From assembly GCA_963716725.1 (NCBI GenBank), contig CAVQUB010000032.1:192001-256000 (forward strand): 64,000 nucleotides of DNA, in the 5' to 3' direction. Shown piece after piece: positions 27,549 through 41,431 of the stretch (the first letter of the stretch is position 1; each line of letters starts with the position of its first letter). The translations under genes and the position numbers were made by a program. The DNA is from an uncultured delta proteobacterium (GTDB lineage: Bacteria; Myxococcota_A; Polyangia; Polyangiales; Polyangiaceae). Below the pieces are notes generated by a model that did no database searches, was not told where the DNA came from, and was given only the letters and a program-made list of their open reading frames with translations.

Positions 27549-28785
27549 TCACGCGATCACTCCTCGCTCGCGCAAGCGACGGAAACCTCTGCGGACGAGT
27601 ACCGACTTCGTCCAGCACGCCGTCGGTGTGCTCGCCGTACGCGGGTGCGAAGGCAAGCTCGCCGGCGCTGCGCCTCGAGAAAGTCGGTGCGTCACCGCCG
27701 GCGGCGGCAGGCGGACGCTGCGACCGTCGGGGGTCGTGGTCGAGAGCAGGCAGCCCTGCACGAACGTCGCAGGTCCATCACCCCCTCGATGGGCGTGATG
27801 GGAGCGTGGGGGATCTGCGCGGCGCGCGAGCGCGCGCGGCGACCTCGCTCGGCGGGGTGCTTCGCGGTGAGCGGCGCCGATGGCGGCGTGCAGCGCGGTC
27901 TTGTCCGCGGCGCCGGCCCTCGTTGGTGGCGAGCGTCCGGTCGATCGAGTGCCGCGAACAGCGGCTCCTCGGCGACCAGCCGCTGCCACTGCACGTCGCT
28001 GCCGACGGCCATGTAGATGAAGCCGTCGCGCGGTCGGGTAGGCGTTGACCGGGATGAACTGCCGGTGCTCGTTGCCCGAGCGCTGCAGCTCCTCCGGCGG
28101 GCTGCCCATGTCGAGCATGGGCAGGAAGGTGTGCAGCCAGCGAGCGGCGACCTGCGCCATCGAGACGTCGATGCGCTTGCCCGCTGCCGGTCTCGGCGCG
28201 CTCGAGCAGCGCGAGCAGCACCTGCGCGAAGGCCTCGTCGCCGGCCTTCAGGTCGATGAGGGGCGGGCCGCACTGCATCGGCGGCCCGTCGGCGGTCGCC
28301 GGTGAGGTCCATGTAGCCGCACAGCGCCTGGAGCACCGGGTCGTAGCCGGGCACGTTCGGGATGCGCGAGCCCCATGGCCGAGATGCAGCACCAGATCAG
28401 CTCGGTCGCGCGCGCGCGCAGCGTCTCGTAGTCGATGCCCAGGGCCGCGTGGCGCGCGGGCATGGTGTTGGTGCAGAACACGTCGACGTCGAAGCTCGCG
28501 GATCAGGCGGCGCGAGCAGCGCCGCCCGTCGGCGCTCCTTCAGGTTCGAGCGCGATGGCCTCCTTGCCGACGTTGGGCGCGACGAAGTAGCTGTGCCGAT
28601 CCTCGCCGGCGACCGGGCGGCCGATGTAGCGGTTCGGATCGCCCTCGGGTCTGCGGCTCCGGCGTGGGCGTCGGCTCGACGCGGATCACGCGCCAGCCCA
28701 GGTGCACGAAGCGCAGCGTCGCGTACGACATGCTGAGCGCCTGCTCGACGCTCAGGACGACGGGCGACGCGCGCTCGTCCGCCAC
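27549..28785 (-). CDS. Family III CoA-transferase (CaiB/BaiF-like), frameshifted
   Basis: [45 protein letters not shown]...PVNAYPT. Confidence 0.82.
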
Positions 28786-30409
28786 TCAGAACCTCACCGG
28801 CTCCCGGTAGGTCCCGAACACCTGCCTTGAGCGCGCCGCAGACCTCGCCGACCGTGGCGTAGGCCTCCACGGCGTCGATGACCGCGGGCATCACGTTCTG
28901 CGCCGCCCGCGGCGGCCGCGCGCACGCGCCTCGAGGGTCGCGCTCGACGCGCGGCCGCGTCGCGCTCGGCGCGCACCTGCGCCGAGGCGCGCGATCTGCT
29001 TGCTCGGCCTCCTCCTCGCGGTAGGGGTGGAACTCGACCTCGCGGCTCCTCCTCCTCCTCGACGAAGCAGTTGACGCCGACCTTCTTGACCTCGCCGCGC
29101 TGCGACGCGCCGCTCGCGCTCGTAGGCCTGGCGGTTCACCTCGGCCTGCACGCGGCCCTCGGCGACGGCCTGCACGATGCCGCCCTCGCGCGTCGAGCTC
29201 GCTCCATGATCGCGACGATGCGCTGCTCCATCTCGTTGGTCGTGCGTCTCGACGAAGTAGGAGCCGGCCAGCGGGATCGACCGTGTCGCACAGCGCCGAT
29301 CTCGTGCATCAGGATCTGCATCGTGCGCAGCGAGAGCTGCGCCGCCTGCTCGCTGGGGATGGTGTAGGCCTCGTCGTAGGAGCAGAGCGCCATCGTCTGC
29401 GTGCCGCGACGAGCGCGCTGGCCAGGGCGTAGTAGGCGCCGCGCACGATGTTGTTCTCGGGCTGCTCGATGGTGAGGCCGCCGCCGCCGCCGCCGGCGAT
29501 CATGCGCAGCTGCATCGAGCGCGGGTTCTTCGCGCCGTAGCTGCTCCTTGAGGATCTGCGCCCACAGCCGGCGCCCGGCGCGGAACTTCGCGACCTGCTC
29601 CCAGAGGTTGCCGTGGATGTCGAAGTTGAAGGAGAGCCCGCGCGCGAACGTCGTCGACGTCGAGCCCGCGCGCGAGCACGTGGTCGATGTAGGCGCAGGC
29701 GATGGCGAGGCCGTAGGCCATCTCCTGGGCCGGCGTCGCCCCGCGACTCGCGGATGTGGTAGCCGCAGACGCTGACCGGGCTGTACTTCGGCGACGTTCG
29801 CGCGCGCAGAACTCGATGGTGTCGCCGACCAGGCGCACGCGACGGCTCGACCGGGAAGATCCAGGTGCCGCGGCCGACGAACTCCTTGAGGATGTCGTTC
29901 TGGGCCGTGCCGCGCAGCGTCGCGAGGTCGAAGCCGCGCTTTCGCGCCATCGCGAAGTACATGGCCATGATCGGCGACGGCCGCGCCGTTGATCGTGAGC
30001 GAGACGGTGATCTCGTTGAGGTCGATGCCGTCGAAGGCCTCCTCCATGTCGGCGAGCGTGTCGACCGCCATGCCGACGCGCCCGACCTCGCCCTCGGCCA
30101 TGGGATCGTCGGAGTCGAGGCCGCACTGGGTCGGCAGGTCGAAGGCGACGTTGAGCCCGGTCTGGCCGTGCTCGATCAGGTAGAGGAAGCGCTCGTGGGT
30201 CTCGGCGGCCGTGCCGAAGCCCGAGTACTGGCGCATGGTCCAGGGGCGCTTGCGGTACATGAGCGGGTGGATGCCGCGGGTGAAGGGGTACTCGCCCGGC
30301 TCGCCGATCGCCTCGCGCCGCCGCTCGCTCCACGTCCTCCGGGCCGTAGACCGGCTCGACCTCGATGCCCGACTTCCCAGATCGACCGGGGGTCGCTCGT
30401 CGTGCTCAC
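28786..30409 (-). CDS. Adenosylcobalamin-dependent acyl-CoA mutase, large (substrate-binding) subunit, frameshifted
   Basis: [59 protein letters not shown]. Confidence 0.9.
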
Positions 30410-30818
30410 CGCTCCACGCGCTCCCGCGAACGCAGCTCGACGATCTCGTCGAGCCGGCGTGCCGGTCGGGAAGACGCCGCCGCGACGCCGAGCTCCTGCA
30501 AGCGCGGCGCGGTCGCGCGTCGGGATGTTGCCGCCCACGACCAGCAGCGCGTCGTCGACGCCGGCGCCGCGCAGCGCCTGCCACCACCTTCTGCGCGAGC
30601 GGCAGGTGCGCGCCCGAGAGGATCGAGAGCCCGACCACGTCGACGTCCTCCTCGCGCGCGGCCGCGCGCGATCGCCTCCGGCGACTGCCGCAGGCCCGTG
30701 TAGATGACCTCCATGCCCGCGTCCATCAGGGCGCGGCAGACGAGCTTGGCGCCGACGTCGTGGCCGTCGAGGCCGGGCTTGGCGATCAGGACGCGGATGG
30801 GCGGGTGCGTCCGGTCAT
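30406..30818 (-). CDS. Acyl-CoA mutase small (cobalamin-binding) subunit, frameshifted
   Basis: [11 protein letters not shown] (DxHxxG), [19 protein letters not shown]. Confidence 0.9.
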
Positions 30819-31955
30819 CGAGCCCCCTCGCGATGTTGACGCGCAGGATCTCGGAGGTGCCGCCGCCGATCAGCGTGAAGCGCACGTCGCGCAGGTAGCG
30901 CTCGACCGGGTACTCCGTCGCGAAGCCGTAGCTCGCCAGGACCCGCGCGGCGCGGTCGCAGACGCGGCAGCGCCGCCTCCGAGGCGAAGAGCTTGGCCAT
31001 GCTCGCCTCGCGTGTCGTTCGGGCAGCCCCTGCTCGCTGCGCCAGGCGGCCCAGTGCGGTCAGCCGGCGCGCGGCCTCGAGGTCCGTGCGCCATCTCGGC
31101 CAGGTGGGCCTGCACCGCCTGGAAGCGCGTCGATGGGCTTGCCGAACTGCTGCGCGCTCGCGCGGCGTAGGCGCAGGGCGTCCTCGTAGGCGGCGCGCGC
31201 CACGCCCAGCGCGAGCGCCGCGGTCATCGACGCGGATCTCGGCGAGGATCTCCCGCAGGTAGCTCGGTGCCCTCGCCGCGGCTCGCCGAGCAGTGCACGT
31301 GGCGGGCGACGTCGTCGAAGAGACCTCGCGAGGTGAGCGACGCGCGGACGCCCATCTTCTCGATGGCGCGGCCGACCTCGAGGCCCGTCGGCGCCCCGCT
31401 CGACCAGGAAGACGCTCGAGCGTCCTTCGTCGCCCGTGCGCGCGAAGACCGTGAAGAAGTCGGCGACCGGCGCCGAGGTGATCCAGGTCTTCGGCCCGTG
31501 ATGCAGCCAGCGCCCGTCCTGCTCCTCGGCGCGCGTGGCGATCGCGAAGCAGGTCGCTGCCCGCGTCCGGCTCGGTCATGCAGATCGTGCCGATCGCCTC
31601 GCCGCGCGAGCGCCGGGCGCGAGCAGCCGCTCGCGCACCTCGCCCGCGGCGAAGCGGTGCACGAAGTACGTGCCCATCAGCGACTGCATGGTGCAGGCGG
31701 CGGCGACCGACGAGGCTGCCCCAGGCCAGCTCCTCGACGGCGAGCAGGTAGCGAGAGCACGTCGGCGCCGCTGCCCTCGGGCTCCGGGTAGCGCATGCCG
31801 AAGAAGCCGAGCTCGCCGGCGCTTGCGCGAAGAGCTCGCGCGGGAACCGCGGGTTCTCGTCGAGCTCGCGCGCGCGCGGCCGGATCTCGCGCTCCGCGAA
31901 GTCGCGGAAGGTCGTCGCGGATCGCCTGCTGCTCGTCGGTCAGGGCGAAGTCCAT
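30815..31955 (-). CDS. Acyl-CoA dehydrogenase, frameshifted
   Basis: [42 protein letters not shown]. Confidence 0.88.
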
Positions 31956-31958
31956 CGC

Positions 31959-33726
31959 TCAGGCCGCTCCGCCGCGCAGGCGCGCGGTCTCCGCCGCGTC
32001 GAGCTCGAAGCGTCTCGGGTCGACGCGCGACGCCGTAGACGCTCGCGCGCCGCCTCGACGCGAGACGATCCCGTCGCGCACCTCGCGCGCACCTTCTCGG
32101 CCGGCCGCTCGTGCGGGTCGCCGTAGCCGCCGCCGCCGCCGGCCTCCTGCACGTAGAGCGTGCCCGGCCGGGACGCCCTGCGACGAGGTCCTTGCTCGTC
32201 GGCGCGGTAGCGCGTGCCGTCCGGGTAGTCGCAGCTCGATCTTGTTGAGCGTGCCGTCGCCGCCGCCGAAGAGCCCGAAGGCCGGCTCGACGTCGCCGTC
32301 GCCGAAGGTGACGATCTGCGTGTCGTCGCCGCCGACGACGGTAGCGCGTCTCGACGCCGAGCCCGCCGCGGTGCTTGCCCGGCGCCCGCCGAGTCGCGGC
32401 AGGTACTCGTGCGTCGAGCAGGCGGTGCGGCGTCTGCTGCTCGAACATCTCGTAGTCCTGATCGAGCACGCCGCCCGAGGCGTCGATCATGCCGATGTGG
32501 TCGTAGCCGTCGCAGTCGCGCAGTCGCCCCCGAGCCGCCCTTGAGCCCCATGAAGAGGATGTCGACGTAGGTGTCGTCGCTTGCGCGGATCCCGGCCCGT
32601 CGACAGCGAGCAGAGCAGCTGGTTCCAGCCCGCGGTCACGCGCTCCGGGATCGACCGGCGCGAGCGCGCGGATGATGGCGTCGGCGTTCGGCGGGCAGAG
32701 GTGGTTGCCGAAGGTGGTCGCCGCCGGGTAGGCGGCGTTCAGGATCGTGCCCTCGGGGATGACGATCTCGATCGGCTGCGACCATCCCGTGGTTGTGCGG
32801 GATGTCGCGGGTTGACCATCTGCAGGAAGGTGAGGAGCGTCGCCGACGCGCTCGAGGTGTAGGTGCCGTTGACGAAGCCCGTTGGTCTGCGCGTCGGTGT
32901 CCGAGTAGTCGAAGCGTGATGTGCTCGTCCTCGACCGTGATCGTGACGCGGATCGTGTACGTCGAGCCCGGGTGTCTTGCCGTCGAAGTAGACCGTGGCT
33001 CTCGCCGCGGTAGACCCCGTTCGGGATGGCGCGGATCTCCGCCTCCATCATCTTGCGGGTCGACTCGAAGAGGGCCTGCTTGTGCGCCTCGAAGCGCTCG
33101 AGCCCGTACTTCTCGATCGAGCGCCGCGAGCCGCCGCTCGCCGACCGTGCAGCTGCCGATCTCGGCGCGCATGTCCTCCTGGACGATGGGCAGGCGGATG
33201 TTGGCGAAGATGAGGTCCCAGACGTCCTGGCGCAGCTTGCCGCGCTCGAAGACCTTCACCGCCGGGATGCGCAGCGCCTCCTGCCAGACCTCGGTGGCGT
33301 TCGGGTTGTAGCCGCCGCGCACGGCGCCGCCGATGTCGGCCTGGTGGCCCTTGGCGGCCGACCAGCCGACCAGCGTGTCGCCGACGAAGATGGGCTTGAA
33401 GGCCGCGACGTCGTTGTTCTGGTTGCCGAGCGAGAAGACGTCGTTGTGGAAGAAGACGTCGCCCGGGATAGACGTCGCCCGCGAACTTCTCGGCGATGTG
33501 CTGGCAGACCGGGCTCAGCGAGAAGCTGAGGATCGGCAGGTTCTCGGTCTGCTCGAGCATCCGCCCCTCGGCGTCGTAGAGGCCGGTGACGAAGTCGTGC
33601 GCCTCGCACAGGATCGGCGAGCGCGTGCGTCTTCTCCATGCTGATGCTCATCTCGTCGGTGATCGCCTTGAGCGCCCGGCCGATGATGGAGACGAGGACC
33701 TTGTCGATCGTCGATGCTGCGCTCAT
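31959..33726 (-). CDS. Hydantoinase B/oxoprolinase-family subunit, frameshifted
   Basis: AITDEM, GGYNPNATEVWQEALRIP, DYSDTD, PEGTILNAAYPAAT, GGGGGYGDP. Confidence 0.88.
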
Positions 33727-35869
33727 GTCGCGCCTCCCGTCGCGTCACGACGACAGCGTGCCGTAGCTCGTCGACCCGCGCCGTCGTAGCGCGGCGCTGA
33801 CGAAGATCGTCGTGTCGGTCCGCTCGATCAGCGCCGGGCCCGGGATCGCGTTGCCGGCCCGCAGCGCGTGGCCGTCGTAGACCGGGCACCTCCTCGAAGC
33901 GCGTCGCGCTCGGGCACGAAGGCGCGCCGCTGCGCCCTTGCGCGCGCGCTCGCGGCTCGGCGCCGCCCGCGCGCGAGCGTCGGCAGCGCCGGCTTCTCGA
34001 TCGCGGCCGACCGACCGCACGCGGACGTTGATCAGCTCGAGCGTCGGTGCCCTCGGCCGCGAGGTCGTAGCCGTAGAGCCGGTCGTGCTCGCGCGTGGAA
34101 GGCGCGCGGCGATCGCGGCGAGGTCGCCGCGCTCGATCGCGCTCGCGCGGCACCGGCACGCGTGACCTCGTGGTACTGCTTCACGTAGCGCAGGTCGAGG
34201 CGCGACCTCGTGGTCGCATGCGCTCGGCGGGCACGCCCTCGCGCGTCGCAGCTGCGCGTCGCCCTCGCGCGACCATCTCGTCGACGAGCGCGCGCGAGCC
34301 GCGCCGGGTCGAGGTCGCCGAAGCGGCGCGATGTAGGAGCGCACGAAGTCGTGCTGCAGGTCGCTCAGCAGCATGCCGGCGGCGCAGAGCACCGAGGCCG
34401 TCGGCGGGACGAGCAGCGACGGGGATCTCGAGCTCGCTGCGCGATCATGCAGGCGTGCAGCGCGCCCGCGCCGCCGGCCACGACCATCGGGAACTCGCGC
34501 GGGTCGAGGCCGCGCTTGACGGTGATCTCGCGCACGCCGTGCGCCATGTTGGCGTTGATCACGCGGTACATGCCCGCCGCCGCCGCCTCGACGTCGAGGC
34601 CCGAGCGGCTCGGCGACGTGCGTCTCGATGGCCGCGCGCGCGCGCGTCGGCGTCGAGCGCGCAGCTCGCCGCCGGCGAAGTAGCGCCGGGTCGAGGTAGC
34701 CGAGCACGAGGTTGGCGTCGGTGCAGGTCGGCCGCTCGCCGCCGCGGCCGTAGCAGGCCGGGCCCGGGATCGCGCCGGCCGACTGCGGGCCCATGCGCAG
34801 CAGCCCGCCCTCGTCGATCCAGCCGATGCTGCCGCCGCCCGCGCCGATCGTCGCGATGTCGAGCATCGGCAGCGCGATGCGCAGCCGGTCGATCTCGCCC
34901 TCGGCTTGCCAGCGCCGCCTGCGCCGCCGCGCACCAGCGAGGCGTCGAAGCTCGTGCCGCCCATGTCGACGACGATGCAGTCGTCGTCGCCGTGCGGCCC
35001 GGCGTACGCGACGGCCGCGCGCGGGCCCGCCGGCCGGGCCGCTGAGCAGAGCGTGCGTCGCCGGGCGCCGCGCGGTCGACCTCGGGCAGCGCGACGCCGC
35101 CGTTCGACTGCATGATGAGCAGCACGCCGCCGAAGCCCGGCCTCGGCGAGCTGCGCGGTCAGGCTGCGCGAGGTAGTCGCGCGAGCACCGGGCCGACGTA
35201 GGCGTTCGAGCACCGTCGTCGAGACGCGGTTGTAGAAGCGGACCGTCGGCAGCACCTCGCGACGAGACGCTCAGGAAGGCGTCCGGCAGCTCGCCGCGCA
35301 CGAGCTCGGCCGCCGCGCGCTCGTGCGCGGGGTTGGCGAAGGCGTTCATGAAGCAGATCGGCGACGGCCTCGACGCCCTCCGCGCGGAAGCAGCGCCGCG
35401 GCCTCGCGCACGTCGTCGAGCGTCGAGCGGCTCGAGCTCGGCGCCCCGCGTAGTCGAGGCGCCCGCGCACCGGCCGCCGCAGGTAGCGCGGCACGAGCGG
35501 CACGACGTTCTGGAAGCGGTTGTCGTACTGCTCCTCGCGGATGCCCGCGCCGCATCTCGAGCGCGTCGCGCACGCCCGTCGGTGGTGAGCGAGCCCGGTC
35601 TTGGCGCCGCGGCGCGTCAGCGTCGGCGTTCGTCGTGACGGTCGTGCCGTGCACGATGCGTGGTCGAGCCGCGCGCGAGCTCGGCGCTGCGACAGGCTCG
35701 AGCGCCTTGGCGACGGCGCCGAGCCCGTCGAGCACGCCGATGCACGGATCCTCGGGCGTCGACAGCACCTTGAAGCTCTGCACCTCGCCCGCGCTGGACC
35801 ACAGGAAGAGATCCGTGAAGGTGCCGCCGACGTCGATGCCGATCTTGTAGGTTTCGTGCGGTGCGTCAT
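33723..35869 (-). CDS. Hydantoinase A/oxoprolinase-family ATP-binding subunit, frameshifted
   Basis: [54 protein letters not shown]. Confidence 0.9.
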
Positions 35870-36501
35870 TGAACCGTCGCCTCTCTGGCGCTCGGGTGGG
35901 CTCGGCGGCGAACGCGTCGCGACCGAGGAGGAACGCCTTGCGGTTGAGCGTGGGCGAACTTCGTCCGCAGCGCTCGGCGATGGCTTCGAGCAGGGCGCCT
36001 TCGCCGACCGGCAAGAGCCCGAGTCCCGCTCGCAGCACCGAGCATCAGCACGTTGAGCGTGCGCGTCTCGCCGACCGCGCCGACGAGCGCCGGCGCGTCG
36101 AGCACGTGACACCTGACCTGCGACGCCTTGCAGCGTGCGCGACGATCGCGCTTCGGGTCCGGGGATGTCGCGTGTTCTCGAGGACGGCCTGGAATGGCAG
36201 CATGACGTGGCGGTTGGTCACCACCCGGGTGCGCCGGTCCCATCTCCGGGACGCGCGCGCAGCGCCTCGAGCGGCTCGAACGCAACCACCACGTCGACCT
36301 CGGGCCCCGCCGTGTGGGAGCTCTCGGCGCCGCCGAAGATCGCGGTGCAACGCACGCTGCCGCCGCGCTGGCTCATGCCGTGGAGCTGCCCGACGACCAC
36401 GGGCTTGCCCTCGGCGTGGGCCGCCATGCGCCGAGAATCTGCGCCGCGGCGAGCACGCCCTGCCCGCCGACGCCGACCAGCATGACCTGAAAGCGGGTCA
36501 C
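35866..36501 (-). CDS. iorB: Indolepyruvate:ferredoxin oxidoreductase beta subunit, frameshifted
   Basis: LVGVGGQGVL, HGMSQRGGSV, AFEPLEALR, LNVLMLGA, LNRKAF; GTGA and ATGA overlaps at both ends. Confidence 0.85.
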
Positions 36502-39500
36502 GGACACGAAGTCCCCTTCACCGTCGAGAGCGCCGGTTCGAGCATACGTCCGCGCAAACGCCGCAGCCGATGCACCACACGGGATCGATCACGACGTGCT
36601 CGCGGGTCGGGTCCATCACGATGGCCGGGCAGCCGAGGGCCTCGATGCAGGCGCGGCAGTTGCCGCACAGACCGCACTGCAGGCAGCGACGCGCTTCGGC
36701 ACGAGCGTCGGCAGCGGATAGCCCCTGCACGACCTCGTCCATGCTGCGAACCGCTCGCTCGCGGGCGAGCTCCTTCGGCGTGAGCCGGGGGGTCGGCGGC
36801 GCCTTGGCCGTCACCAGCGGGCGTTGCTTCGGCAGGGACGGCGGCGGACGACGATCGGCTGCGGTCGAACCGCGCAGCTCGCTGTCGATGCCCCACGCGG
36901 CGCGCAAGCCCCACGCGATGGCGCCCGTCACAGTGCGATCGCCCGCGACCAGATCGCCGCCCGCAAACACGCCCGCGCGCGAGGTGCGCCCCGTGAGCGG
37001 ATGCGCTCTGACGAGCCCGGCCTCGTCGACTTCGAGCCCCGTCGCGGCCAGCACTCTCGCATCCGGCTCCTGGCCGATGGCAACGATGACCAGATCACAG
37101 GCGAGCCGGAGCTCGCTGCCGTCCGCGAGGCCGGTGACGATCAGTGCGCCGTCGTCGAAGCGAAGGGGACGCACGCCGGTGCGAAGCGTGATGCCTTCGT
37201 GCTCGGCGGCGGTGATCTCGTCGCGCAGCGCCGGCATTGCGTTCAGCTCTTCGAGGCACGCGATGGTGACGCCTGTTGCGCCTCGACGCAGCGCGGTGCG
37301 CGCCGCGTCGACTGCGGCGTTGCCGCCGCCGATCACGACGACCTGTCGGCCCGCAGGCGCATCGGCGTCGAGGCGAATGGCGCGCAGATAACCCAGGGCA
37401 TCGATGCTGCGCGGGGCAGCGTCGCGATCGCTGCCCGGCAGCGCCAGGGTCTTGCTGCGATGGGCGCCGATGGCCAGAAACACGGCTCGGAAGTCCGCGC
37501 TCGAGATCGTCCAGGGAGATCTCGCGACCGAGGCGTTTTCCACCTTCGAAGCGGACTCCGAGGCGGAGCACGCGCTCGATGTCACGTGCGGACTGTGCCG
37601 CGGGCAGGCGGTACTCGGGGATGCCGTGGGTCAGGAGGCCGCCCGGCCGCGCCTCGGCGTCGAAGAGCGTGACGCTGTAGCCGCGCACCGCGAGCTCGTG
37701 GGCGGCGGACAGGCCCGCGACGCCCGGCGCCGATGATGGCGACCGCTGTTCCATGCGCCGGCTCCCTCGGCGTCTCGAGAAGGTCCGGGCGTTCGCGCTC
37801 GGCCCAGTCCACGACGAAGCGCTTCAGATCGTTGATCGCGACGGGCTCGTCGAGGCCGCGGCGGACGCAGCCGTCTTCGCAGGGTCGGTCGCAGACGCGA
37901 CACACCGAGCTCGGGCAGCGGCGTGCGCGCCATCACGTGCTGCAAGGCCTCGGCGTTTTCGCCAGCCGCGATGTGGCCCGCGTAGCCCTGAATGCACAGC
38001 GACAGCGGGCAGCGCTCGGCGCAAGGCGCGACGGATGACTCGAGATCGAGCGCGCCGCGCTGGCTGGCCACGCGCGCGAGGTTTCGCTCGAAGCCTTCGG
38101 TGATGGGCACGTCGCAGCGCAGGTGGTGCTCGGCGCGACCGCAGGTACGGCAGCGATCGGCGTCGGCAACGTAGGCCGGCGGCCGAGCGGCGGAGCCGGT
38201 GCGATCGCGACTCGGCCACCGGACAGGCGCGCCGCACCACGATCACGCTGGTGCCCTGGGCGCCGCGGGCGCGCCGAAAGGCCGCGCTCGAGGCCTCGAG
38301 CTGGTAGGGGTCGATGGTCTCGACGTGGCGGGCGCCGAGGGCGCGCGCCACGTCCTCGATGCGCTGCTCGCGGGTCGGGGCTCTCCTGGAAGCCCGTCAT
38401 CGCGGTGATCTCGTTGTCGAGCACGACCGCGACGACGTTGGCGTTCTCCTTGACCGCGTCGAGCAGCGCCGGCATGCCGGCGTGGAAGAAGGTCGAGTCG
38501 CCCATGAAGCCCACGGTGCGCTTGCCGGTGACCTTGGCGACGCCGGCGGCCAGAGTGAAGCCCGCGCCCATGCAGAGCAGCGCGTCGGCGGTGCTGAGCG
38601 GCGGCGCGTAGCCCAGCGTGTAGCAGCCGATGTCGTTGATGTAGAGCTGGTCTTCGTCGAACGCCGCGCGCGCCGCGACGAAGGCTGCGCGGTGCGGACA
38701 GCCTGGGCAGAGCGATGGCGCACGCACGGGGACCACCGGGCAGGGCTGGCTTCTTGCGTGGAAGCTCGCCGATGCCGGAAGCACCTCGAAGAGCGCGCGC
38801 TGGATGACCTCGGCGCTCGTACTCGAACTCCTCGGGCAGGTGCCCGGAGCGCTTGCCGAGGATCTTCGATGAGAGGCCGATGGCGCGCGCTGAGGGCGAG
38901 GAGCGCGTTCTCGAGGAACGGCGACAGCTCCTCGACGACCAGGACACGCTCGACTCCGCGCAGCGCGGTCGACGAGCTCGCGCTTCGGGCAGCGGATGCA
39001 CGGTGCCGAGCCGCCAGAGCGGCGACTCGGTCAGTCGCGCCGGCCAGCTCCAGCAGATCCGCGACTGGTCGCGGCCGGCGCGCCGGACGCGAGCACGACG
39101 TCAGGGCTCTGGCCCTCGGATGCGGAAGAAGCCCGACTCCGCCATCCACGCGCGGGCGATCTCGATGCGCTCCTTGAGCTCGAGGCGCATGCGCCGCGCG
39201 TTGGCCGGAACGGGCACGTAGCCGCGCCGGGTCGCGCACGAAGCCCGCCGACCTGACGCGGCGCGGAGCCGGTCCCAGCTCCACCGGGCCGCGCGTGTGC
39301 GCCACTCGCGTGGTGGTGCGAATCAGGACGGGCAAGCGACTCGCTTCGCACAGCTCGAAGGCCGCGCGGGTCATCGCATGGGCTTCGGCGGGCGTGCTCG
39401 GATCGAGGATCGGCAGGTGCAGCATCGGACCGAGGTGGCGCTGGTCGGCCTCGTTGGGGCTGGTGTGGCACGACGGATCGCCCGCGCTGATGATGACCAT

Positions 39501-39867
39501 GCCCGCCTCGACGCCGACGTACGGAATGGTCGAGATGCGGGTCACCGGCCACCATCAGGCCCAGGTGCTTCATCGCGGTCAGCGAGCGAGCACCGGCCAG
39601 GGCGGCGGCGAAGGCGAGCTCGAGGGCGATCTTCTCGTTGACCGAGTACTCGAAGGCGATCTCGCGCGCTTTCGCGATGCGCGCGAAGCCATCGGTGATC
39701 TCCGACGACGGCGTGCCGGGATAGCCCGCCACGAACACCACGCCGGCTTCTAGTGCGCCGCGCACGATGGCGTCGTTGCCGAGCAGGTGCACGACTCCAT
39801 CGGCACGGTCGTCCAGGAGTGGATCGCTTCGACCGGAGCTGCGAGCAACTGTGCTGTCTCGGTCCAC
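36498..39867 (-). CDS. iorA: IorA (indolepyruvate oxidoreductase alpha) with internal GltD-like FAD/NAD(P)/Fe-S module, frameshifted
   Basis: GYPGTPSSE, NEKIALE, MKHLG, LCPGCPHR, DIGCYTL, GDSTFFH, TAMTG; then APCAERCP, CRVCDRPCEDGC, IIGAG, GGGNAAVD, FAGGD; ends CLQCGLCGNCRAC...GCPAI...CIGCGVCADVC. Confidence 0.8.
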
Positions 39868-39901
39868 TCGACAGTCGTTCCACGCATCCGGGGGGACCTA
39901 C

Positions 39902-41431
39902 ATGACCCCGGTCATGTCGAGATTGACGCGGTGCATTGCGCCCGGGGTGGTAGCGTCTCTCTGGGTCGACGTGGCTTCGGTTTACCTGGGCGGGGTGCTG
40001 ACTGCTTGGTGCGTGACGCAACTGGCGTTGGGCGTGTTCTTCGCGCTCGTGCACCTCGTCGCTCGGCGTGAGCGCGACTTGCTCATCTACGGGGCCATGT
40101 GCTTGGCGCTGGCGTACCACAGCGCGAGCAGCGCCCGCGCGCACTTCGCCCTGACGGTCGCCGAGCGCTTCGACGCGGTCACCGGCGTGGTGCAGGCGGC
40201 GCTGATCACGGCCGCGTTGAACCTCCACTTCGTCGCGGCCTTCGTCGGGTGGCCGGGCCGTCGGCGCTGGCTCGTTGGCCTCTATGCCGCGGCGATTGGC
40301 TTCGAGGTCGCGGTCGCGCTCGGCCATTGGTGGCACCTCGACACCGCGGTCTTGTCCGAGGCTCGGCTCTTCGGATGGGAGTTCAGCCACTGGCGCGCCG
40401 AGCCGACCCCAGTGGCGAAGCTCGGCTTCGCCTGGGTGGGGATCCAGCTCGTGATTGCGCAAGCGGGGCTCTGTCGCGCCGCGATGAGCGGTCAACGCGA
40501 AGCGTACTTCGCCTTCGCAGGGGGCCTGACGGTCGTCGCGGCGGCGACGAATGACGTGCTGCTCAGCACCGGCGTGGTGAAGCACTCCCTCTACTTCGCG
40601 CCCCATGCGTTCATGCTGTACGCCTTCAGCGTCGCCAGCACCGTCGTGTTCCGCTATCGGAGGACCATCACCGAGCTGACCCGGACAGAGCGTGAGCTGC
40701 GCGCGGCGACCGACCAGTTGTCGGTGTCGCACCAGGAGCTCCGGGAGGTCCAAGACGAGCTCACCAAGAAAGAACAGCTCGCGGCGGTGGGCGAGCTCGC
40801 CGCGGCCATCGCCCACGAGGTGCGCAACCCCTTGGCGGTCATCAGCAACGCCGTCGCCGGGCTGAGGCGCCCCGCTGCCGTGGCCGCCGACCGAGAGGTG
40901 CTGCTCGACATCGTGAGCGAAGAGGCCAATCGACTGAACCATCTGGTGACCGACCTGCTCAGATTTGCCCGCCCGAGCTCCCTGAAGCGCTCGCGCATCG
41001 ATCTGGTCGAGCTGATCGAGCACACTCAGGTGCCGCTCGGTGAGCAGCACTCACTCGAAGTGCGCGCCGACGACAGCGCGCGCTTCGTCGAGGCCGATCA
41101 GAATCTCCTGCGGGCGGCCTTCGACAACGTGATCCTGAACGCAGCGCAGGCCACGCCGAAGGGTGGGACCATCGACGTCGAGGTCGAAGATGTCCAAGCG
41201 AATCGCGCGCCGGGCGTCTTGGTCACGCTCAGAGACTCCGGCGCCGGCATGGACGCCGCGACGGTGGCCCGGGCGCTCGACCCCTTCTTCACGACGCGCC
41301 CGAGCGGCACCGGTCTCGGTTTGCCCATCGTGCAGCGCGTCGTCCAGGCCCACGGCGGCCACTTGGAGCTCGAGAGCGAGAATGGCCGTGGCACGACGGT
41401 TCGCATCTGGTTGCCACGCACCGCGCCGTGA
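39902..41431 (+). CDS. Membrane sensor histidine kinase (multi-TM N-terminus)
   Basis: About 7 TM segments; H-box IAHEVRNPL; N-box NAAQA; DSGAGM, PFFTT, GTGLGL; start approximate. Confidence 0.92.
   Translation: MTPVMSRLTRCIAPGVVASLWVDVASVYLGGVLTAWCVTQLALGVFFALVHLVARRERDLLIYGAMCLALAYHSASSARAHFALTVAERFDAVTGVVQAALITAALNLHFVAAFVGWPGRRRWLVGLYAAAIGFEVAVALGHWWHLDTAVLSEARLFGWEFSHWRAEPTPVAKLGFAWVGIQLVIAQAGLCRAAMSGQREAYFAFAGGLTVVAAATNDVLLSTGVVKHSLYFAPHAFMLYAFSVASTVVFRYRRTITELTRTERELRAATDQLSVSHQELREVQDELTKKEQLAAVGELAAAIAHEVRNPLAVISNAVAGLRRPAAVAADREVLLDIVSEEANRLNHLVTDLLRFARPSSLKRSRIDLVELIEHTQVPLGEQHSLEVRADDSARFVEADQNLLRAAFDNVILNAAQATPKGGTIDVEVEDVQANRAPGVLVTLRDSGAGMDAATVARALDPFFTTRPSGTGLGLPIVQRVVQAHGGHLELESENGRGTTVRIWLPRTAP

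Follow-up and report, generated by a model that had tools for sequence, protein, structure and literature searches.

The DNA analysed here (the window) is a stretch of 64,000 nucleotides (nt) from contig CAVQUB010000032.1 (positions 192,001 to 256,000) of the assembly GCA_963716725.1, which belongs to an uncultured delta proteobacterium of the Polyangiaceae. Positions 36498-39867 of its minus strand encode one protein of about 1,100 amino acids (aa), which is covered by a staircase of overlapping open reading frame (ORF) fragments. In this protein, an IorA-type core is followed by a cysteine-rich linker, a GltD/NfnB-like module for flavin adenine dinucleotide (FAD) and NAD(P), and a C-terminal ferredoxin domain of the 2x[4Fe-4S] type. 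The Pfam matches on the ORF fragments were, from 5' to 3', POR_N, TPP_enzyme_C, Fer4_20, NAD_binding_8, Pyr_redox_2, and Fer4, and after the fused gene Pfam matched an IorB-type POR domain and then a hydantoinase. The coordinates of all features are listed in Table 1.

Table 1. The fused gene, its domains, and the downstream genes in the window.
Feature	Position in window	Strand	Basis and remarks
Fused iorA-like gene, about 1,100 aa	36498..39867	-	ORF fragments, tblastn; intact orthologues; at least 15 spurious single-base insertions in the window
POR_N domain (P0001 residues 12-176)	39264..39759	-	Pfam; coordinates from tblastn segments
TPP_enzyme_C domain (P0001 residues 382-514)	38235..38634	-	Pfam; invariant Cys 357, 360, 385, and 518 around the domain
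Cys-rich linker YVADADRCRTCG...LRC with invariant Cys 542, 545, and 554	38030..38170	-	Begins like the canonical IorA ferredoxin domain
Fer4_20 domain, predicted site of two GltD/NfnB-type [4Fe-4S] clusters, including invariant Lys651	37792..38041	-	Pfam, alignment
Pyr_redox_2 flavoprotein body with FAD and NAD(P) Rossmann folds	36920..37746	-	Pfam
NAD(P)-binding motif GGGNAAVD...VTIACLEE, acidic where NADPH-binding homologues have YRR	37244..37330	-	Alignment
EARRCLQCG (Cys 1030, 1033) and complete 2x[4Fe-4S] ferredoxin domain	36498..36706	-	Pfam, alignment
iorB-like beta subunit (POR domain)	35877..36500	-	Pfam; frameshifted; its GTG start and the stop of the fused gene overlap (GTGA)
hyuA, caprolactamase-like, hydantoinase/oxoprolinase family	33757-35864	-	Frameshifted in the window
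hyuB, caprolactamase-like, hydantoinase/oxoprolinase family	31971-33708	-	Frameshifted in the window
Acyl-CoA dehydrogenase	30826-31955	-	Conserved operon
B12-binding mutase small subunit	about 30585-30810	-	Conserved operon
Methylmalonyl-CoA mutase (MCM)-like mutase large subunit	29016-30627	-	Conserved operon
Family III CoA-transferase	27598-28764	-	Conserved operon

The first-pass annotation of the window had proposed a fusion with both junctions in frame, and this was borne out. The first junction was read in a single frame (frame -1) at 38200-37913, where PPAYVADADRCRTCG continues into APCAERCPLSLCIQGYAG. The second was likewise read in frame -1 at 37501-36533, where the flavoprotein body continues into EARRCLQCGLCGNCRACIEALGCPAI...IDPVWCIGCGVCADVC and EARRCLQCG runs into the ferredoxin tail. 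A search for intact homologues, as the annotation had suggested, retrieved single ORFs of 1,090-1,127 aa, and same-genus genomes contained single open frames of 1125, 1127, and 1124 aa. A stop followed by a new start between the thiamine pyrophosphate (TPP) domain and the GltD module was not found in the lineage of the window. The AlphaFold2 model of the fused protein was confident, with a mean predicted local distance difference test (pLDDT) score of 86.4 and a predicted template modeling (pTM) score of 0.73, and the linker stretch was ordered (pLDDT of 79-87). The fusion, which joins a subunit of a 2-oxoacid oxidoreductase to an iron-sulfur flavoprotein that binds NAD(P), is real and conserved.

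The ORF fragments result from frame breaks in the assembly. The database protein P0001, a single ORF of 1090 aa, shared 1001 of 1040 aligned residues (96%) with the window copy. When P0001 was compared with the window by ungapped tblastn, 14 segments cycling through the three frames were obtained; all 13 segment junctions carried 1, 2, or 4 surplus bases, never a deficit, and an additional frame change was located near residue 1080. Every break was a surplus base, nonsense substitutions were absent, and every invariant cysteine was kept despite the breaks. The nearby indels mentioned in the annotation are present, but they are far more numerous than implied (at least 15 frame breaks in 3.3 kb). 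The essential gene rpoB of the same assembly (contig C3 of genome G000) was split into 12 matches in several frames, whereas two cytochrome oxidase COX1 genes, located on contigs C6 and C10, are read without a break, so that the error rate is uneven between contigs.

Short-read contigs from four runs in four studies cover the locus and do not have the extra bases at the break sites. One of these contigs (11,259 nt) has 120 substitutions and 26 gaps across 36400-39900, the whole of which it spans. Each of the 12 indels listed, out of 28 in the short-read contigs, was a single base left out. Ten of them fell at or within frame-break sites (37505, 37722, 37912, 38202, 38376, 38741, 38774, 38782, 38818, and 38879), and the other two were at 36430 and 36767. 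As rpoB is broken alike, the short-read contigs lack the extra bases, and the orthologues are intact, the breaks are assembly artefacts rather than signs of gene decay, and the fused gene is intact in the organism. Around 36767, the window has ELARERAVRSM in place of the ELPASERVRNM of P0001, and one base is dropped at 36767 in the short-read contigs; two indel errors that compensate each other, within the longest apparently intact fragment, are the probable cause. Frequent single-base insertions also split every gene of the operon (27598-39867), which affects the gene calls and the 84% completeness estimate of the genome. Contigs about 96-97% identical to the locus were present in biofilter, wastewater, and groundwater metagenomes of four separate studies, so the lineage that carries this operon has a wide distribution in engineered and subsurface waters.

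The fused architecture was found in 111 of the 120 best database matches to the C-terminal 355 aa, and these 111 full-length members were used as the family set. They were 1040-1260 aa long and contained PF01855, PF02775, PF14691, PF07992, and mostly also PF00037. Source names among the matches included Myxococcales, Polyangiaceae, Vicinamibacterales, Planctomycetes, Gemmatimonadetes, Acidimicrobiales, and 'Deltaproteobacteria'. The only product names given to the family in the database were 'FAD-dependent oxidoreductase' and 'IorA', neither of which describes these fused proteins. A 221-aa probe spanning the junction was searched against 301 sampled genomes of the phylum of the window, and the fusion was present in 17: the probe matched end to end in 16 genomes (open frames of 1072-1374 aa) and in pieces in the genome of the window itself. 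In a library clustered at 50% identity, 15 of the 150 best matches to the linker and Fer4_20 placed this stretch at about residues 534-593 of proteins of 1090-1384 aa. Of 80 loci retained from the genome searches, three were fused (L013, L014, and L020); the remainder were canonical IorA genes and served as the comparison set. An open frame of 1078 aa in genome G013 (locus L008) was considered as a distant fused copy and rejected, as it matched the flavoprotein part only, with 35% identity.

Comparison with canonical IorA located the insertion. For eight canonical IorA proteins, the alignment with the fused proteins extended to YxxDxxxCxxC and resumed at C-x5-CPA, from where it ran to the end, and in tblastn many canonical IorA genes matched the residues up to about 545-590 and also residues 1036-1082. 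The TIGR03336 profile was split in the genome of the window, with profile positions 4-539 before the insert and 551-591 on the tail. The flavoprotein thus largely interrupts what corresponds to the ferredoxin domain of canonical IorA. The earlier description needs a correction here, in that the tail has a complete eight-cysteine motif of its own (CxxCxxC-x5-CP...CxxCxxCxxxC). The domains expected of the alpha subunit of indolepyruvate oxidoreductase (IOR) were present, namely POR_N, TPP_enzyme_C, four proximal-cluster cysteines, and the C-terminal 2x[4Fe-4S] domain in interrupted form, with the cysteines invariant in 111 of 111 members. The TIGR03336 score was 603.3 bits (residues 2-554, in two stretches), below the equivalog cut-off of 650.9. 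The POR domain was present in IorB of the window and its relatives, and the IorB of L013 scored 145.3 bits with TIGR03334 (cut-off 205.8) and 160.7 bits with NF005323 (cut-off 238). The fused system shares with IorAB (TIGR03336 and TIGR03334) the POR_N and TPP_enzyme_C domains, the four proximal cysteines, the aligned start and tail of the ferredoxin domain, and a separate IorB encoded immediately downstream. It differs in the iron-sulfur flavoprotein of about 480 aa that interrupts the ferredoxin domain, in the scores of both subunits, and in an operon that is not one of aromatic amino-acid fermentation.

Twenty-four cysteines were invariant in the 111 full-length members, as were Lys651 and Arg722, and the window copy keeps all of them. 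Assigned by homology, the cysteines would hold six [4Fe-4S] clusters, in addition to one FAD and one TPP, per alpha subunit. Cys 357, 360, 385, and 518 would bind the TPP-proximal cluster; for this assignment we take the CxxC-x24-C...C pattern to be that of 2-oxoacid oxidoreductases. The two clusters of the ferredoxin domain are predicted at Cys 1036, 1039, 1042, and 1048 and at Cys 1067, 1070, 1073, and 1077. The distal GltD-type cluster is placed at Cys 585, 636, 1030, and 1033, and in the HMMER alignment residues 998-1033 correspond to the N-terminal end of NfnB with its RCLQC motif. The putative ligands of the FAD-proximal cluster are Cys 589, 628, and 632 together with Lys651, and Cys594 aligned with Cys114 of StnC. 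Cys 542, 545, 554, and 625 most likely form an extra [4Fe-4S] cluster specific to the family, in which the upstream CxxC...C is joined by Cys625; StnC has a glycine at the position aligned with Cys625 and no counterpart of this four-cysteine site.

The flavoprotein module was described in the annotation as GltD-like, which is correct, but the StnC/NfnABC-type domain, rather than GltD proper, is its closest relative. The best matches in both sequence and fold were the GltD-like domains of 9bov_A, 9n5u_A, and 8oh5_C (StnC), with E-values of 1e-77 to 2e-65 and Foldseek E-values of 6e-39 to 4e-35, and NfnB, GltD, and DPD ranked after them by both measures. PF14691 matched residues 579-661, and Cys585, 589, 628, 632, 636, 1030, and 1033 were invariant and aligned with those of NfnB and StnC. 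The two dinucleotide-fold motifs (GxGxxG and GGGxxAxD) were present in the window, with G682, G684, and G687 and with G815, G816, G817, D822, and R825 invariant in the family. EARRCLQCG had been taken for the C-terminus of GltD; its junction with the tail is indeed in frame, but in NfnB and GltD the motif is N-terminal, and here it follows the flavoprotein body as in StnC.

The GltD-like domain of StnC is itself inserted in a NuoG-like iron-sulfur protein, where it carries electrons from NADPH through a non-bifurcating FAD and two clusters to an iron-sulfur chain (PMC10482914, in excerpt). The same excerpt gives the lysine K170 as a ligand of the FAD-proximal cluster in StnC, where NfnB has a glutamate. 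Lys651 aligned with K170 and with the NfnB glutamate and was present in 111 of 111 members, and neither an NfnA-like nor a HydBC-like partner gene was seen in the operons examined. Of the two features that characterize bifurcating NfnB, the glutamate was thus absent from the family and the NfnA partner from the operons examined, and the match of Lys651 with K170 favors a plain conversion between two-electron and one-electron transfer over bifurcation. With StnC and the 'NfnA' of NfnABC (8oh5_C, 9bov_A, and 9n5u_A), the fused family shares a domain inserted in an iron-sulfur protein, EAxRCLxCG after the flavoprotein body, and the lysine at the proximal cluster. The host differs, being a NuoG/FdhF-like scaffold in a transhydrogenase for StnC and a TPP enzyme for the fused family, and StnC-type proteins have YRR where the clade of the window has CLE. 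Similarity to NfnB, GltD, and domains I-III of DPD comprises Fer4_20 with two [4Fe-4S] clusters and the FAD and NAD(P)H Rossmann folds, with weaker scores than those of the StnC-type matches. NfnB has an N-terminal RCLQC, the glutamate ligand, and the motif YRR.

The second Rossmann motif of the window copy is VVVIGGGNAAVDAARTALRRGATGVTIACLEELNAMPA, which reads GGGNAAVD...VTIACLEE. The GGGNAAxD motif was conserved at the NAD(P) site throughout the family. In all five of the NADPH-binding PDB homologues listed, the second strand of the NAD(P) fold is followed by YRR, and the window copy has ACLEE (CLE type) instead. This substitution, pointed out in the annotation, proved to be a clade-level trait: position 841 was acidic (CLE, CIE, CVE, and others) in 81 of the 111 members, and YRR was found in the other 30. 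In a FastTree phylogeny of the 111 sequences with the motif columns left out, the trait was clustered, requiring 5 changes compared with about 26 in shuffles, and at least two changes were forced by well-supported branches. As a general rule, a second Rossmann strand ending in an acidic residue indicates NAD+ preference. The acidic form should prefer NAD+, in line with the hint of the annotation.

The modules also occur apart. On the contig encoding P0123 (L093:4313-7713), the IorA core and the flavoprotein-ferredoxin part are adjacent genes in the same operon, with iorB, hyuA, and hyuB downstream of the flavoprotein gene. The core ORF was 68% identical to P0001 residues 3-528, and its TGA and the GTG with which the flavoprotein gene begins overlap (GTGA), although a single-base error in the contig is possible. 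Homologues of about 570 aa (47-52% identity) start with F-x-I-D-x-x-R-C-x-x-C-G-R...L-R-C and have the same ferredoxin tail as the fused proteins. The split form and these homologues indicate that the folding unit consists of the cysteine motif, the flavoprotein, and the ferredoxin domain, attached to the IorA core. The NF009410 (PRK12771) family of stand-alone 'NAD(P)-binding proteins' has the same order of Fer4_20, Pyr_redox_2, and ferredoxin tail; residues 571-1083 matched profile positions 36-561 of 566, scoring 421.3 bits against a cut-off of 516. Among such 'stand-alone' proteins, at least P0123 represents the split form, with its gene immediately behind that for an IorA core. In Nitrospira and relatives, a large set of proteins of 542-544 aa (P0177, P0205, P0235, and about 40 others; about 37% identity) was observed that combine GltD-like and ferredoxin parts and stand alone. 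These do not have the N-terminal CxxC, and one source named its protein '2-oxoacid:acceptor oxidoreductase delta subunit'; they could serve multi-subunit 2-oxoacid oxidoreductases as NAD(P)-linked partners.

The genes downstream of the fused gene form a conserved operon. The order fused iorA, iorB, hyuA, hyuB, acyl-CoA dehydrogenase, small and large subunits of the B12 mutase, and CoA-transferase was the same in the window, in a genome of the same genus (G002), and at L013 and L014; L013 is an Acidobacteria metagenome-assembled genome whose fused protein was 58% identical. Three metagenome contigs (L093, L094, and L095) agreed with this order as far as they extend. iorB was downstream of the fused gene in all eight contexts examined. 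The hyuAB operon was not found at L020 (41% identity), where iorB was present, and thus the association with the operon is not universal. The operon downstream of the fused gene (window 27598-36500; L009, L013, L014, and L093-L095) was shared between phyla, with fused proteins 52-58% identical, which suggests an undescribed catabolic pathway spreading by horizontal transfer. Upstream of the operon, and divergent from it, lies a gene (window 39968-41419, plus strand) for a histidine kinase with a 7TMR-DISM-type membrane domain; the kinase was 76% identical to, and syntenic with, its counterpart in G002, and it is a candidate sensor of the pathway substrate.

The best NCBIfam matches of the operon proteins were all below cut-offs: hyuA and hyuB matched caprolactamase alpha and beta, the acyl-CoA dehydrogenase matched acryloyl-CoA reductase or glutaryl-CoA dehydrogenase, the mutase matched methylmalonyl-CoA mutase, and the CoA-transferase matched succinate-glutarate CoA-transferase. 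Judged by these matches, the operon looks like one for lactam or dicarboxylate catabolism. The annotation had named an arylpyruvate as the substrate. This was unsupported: with both subunits below the IOR equivalog cut-offs, transfer of arylpyruvate specificity is not justified, and the operon resembles lactam and acyl-CoA catabolism.

On this evidence, the fused gene and iorB probably encode a ferredoxin-independent, coenzyme A (CoA)-acylating 2-oxoacid:NAD+ oxidoreductase, and the insertion is most economically read as an internal wire to NAD(P)+. The fused protein would be the alpha subunit of an IorAB-type, TPP-dependent, CoA-acylating 2-oxoacid oxidoreductase with a StnC/NfnB-like module built into its ferredoxin domain. 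Electrons would leave the TPP-bound intermediate singly through the TPP-proximal cluster and would pass the two clusters of the ferredoxin domain, the extra family-specific cluster, and the two GltD-type clusters to a non-bifurcating FAD. The FAD would gather two electrons and hand a hydride to NAD+, or to NADP+ in the YRR members (about one quarter of the family). Such an enzyme would need no free ferredoxin and would suit an oxygen-respiring bacterium; two genes for haem-copper oxidase subunit I occur in the genome of the window. The operon suggests that the substrate may be a product of lactam ring opening that is later processed as an acyl-CoA, and not an arylpyruvate.

Several points weigh against this proposal. 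Biochemical data on any family member were not found in the literature searched. Both IOR profiles scored below their equivalog cut-offs, and the step from the acidic residue to NAD+ preference in the fused family is taken from the general Rossmann rule. The C-terminal ferredoxin domain, the usual exit to external ferredoxin in this enzyme class, is fully kept, so external ferredoxin could still serve, and the closest structural relatives act within electron-bifurcating complexes. The last two points correspond to two alternatives. Under the first, external ferredoxin or flavodoxin would still be reduced through the C-terminal domain, and the flavoprotein would be a side branch feeding in electrons from NAD(P)H, either so that the clusters stay reduced and protected in an aerobe or for the reverse (synthase) reaction. 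The complete eight-cysteine domain aligned with canonical IorA and the oxygen reductases of the host are consistent with such a branch. However, NAD(P)H at -320 mV cannot alone drive reductive carboxylation, and a 480-aa module with invariant cofactor ligands across phyla and a clade-wise switch of the nucleotide motif fits the main catalytic route better; a side branch is therefore considered unlikely.

The second alternative is flavin-based bifurcation or confurcation, in which the NfnB-like FAD would couple 2-oxoacid oxidation to two acceptors, for example, NAD(P)+ and ferredoxin at the C-terminal domain. NfnB, a homologue of the module, has a bifurcating FAD, the three best structural matches of the module come from bifurcating complexes, and Arg722, the equivalent of NfnB R201, is invariant (PMC10482914, in excerpt). 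The same excerpt, however, reports the GltD-like subunit in those complexes as itself non-bifurcating. The StnC-type lysine in place of the NfnB-type glutamate in all members and the operons examined, in which no NfnA-like or HydBC-like partner was seen, also argue against it. Moreover, a 2-oxoacid oxidized at about -500 mV can reduce NAD+ without bifurcation, and we regard this alternative as quite improbable. That the window copy is a decaying pseudogene encoding nothing functional, as the density of frame breaks here and in the neighboring genes might suggest, is hardly credible in view of breaks consisting only of surplus bases, the absence of nonsense substitutions, the 96% identity to P0001, the similarly broken rpoB, and the independent short-read contigs without the extra bases.

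The proposed NAD+-linked oxidoreductase has partial counterparts among known enzymes. The bacterial phenylglyoxylate:NAD+ oxidoreductase PadEFGHI reportedly reduces NAD+ with FAD and iron-sulfur clusters in five subunits; it is likened here by description only and is a multi-subunit enzyme, not a fusion. PMC5109826 mentions it in a pathway and cites Hirsch et al. 1998. The module of the eukaryotic pyruvate:NADP+ oxidoreductase is a C-terminal, cytochrome P450 reductase-like domain for flavin mononucleotide (FMN) and FAD on a single-chain pyruvate:ferredoxin oxidoreductase (PFOR), and thus it is unrelated to GltD/NfnB and appended rather than inserted. The concept is the same, as in this enzyme too a 2-oxoacid oxidoreductase is covalently joined to a pyridine-nucleotide reductase and free ferredoxin is not needed. 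The enzyme is that of Euglena and Cryptosporidium (cited in PMC13768988). Literature searches, with supplements outside their scope, found no paper on a fusion of IorA with a flavoprotein, and a search for papers linking caprolactamase with indolepyruvate found none. The term 'GltD' does not occur in a 2026 review of PFOR diversity, and the fusions described in a review of Nfn distribution are of NfnA with NfnB only. The IOR-type oxidoreductase, the StnC-type adaptor, and the pyruvate:NADP+ oxidoreductase concept are known ingredients, and the fusion is a variant combining them.

The 2-oxoacid:ferredoxin oxidoreductases are usually treated as enzymes of anaerobes tied to a low-potential ferredoxin pool. 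As a broader and more tentative possibility, the family may constitute a new class of six-cluster, FAD-containing, ferredoxin-independent 2-oxoacid:NAD+ oxidoreductases that brings TPP/iron-sulfur radical chemistry to oxygen-respiring bacteria of soil and wastewater. It might catalyze the decarboxylating step of an unrecognized lactam degradation, in which ATP-dependent, caprolactamase-like ring opening would lead to a 2-oxoacid and then to an acyl-CoA for the acyl-CoA dehydrogenase and the B12 mutase, and the nucleotide preference might have switched between clades with YRR and CxE. This natural dichotomy of YRR and CxE in one family is a ready-made test of cofactor specificity, and the conserved operon points to an uncharted catabolic route. 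If the proposal is true, the family would be the second natural case, after StnC, of a GltD-like module inserted in an iron-sulfur domain as a plug-in pyridine-nucleotide adaptor. So far, the overall design has been best known from pyruvate:NADP+ oxidoreductase, which is eukaryotic and unrelated; if bacteria widely possess a form with its own NAD(P)+ reductase, the use of this chemistry by aerobes without a ferredoxin pool would be explained.

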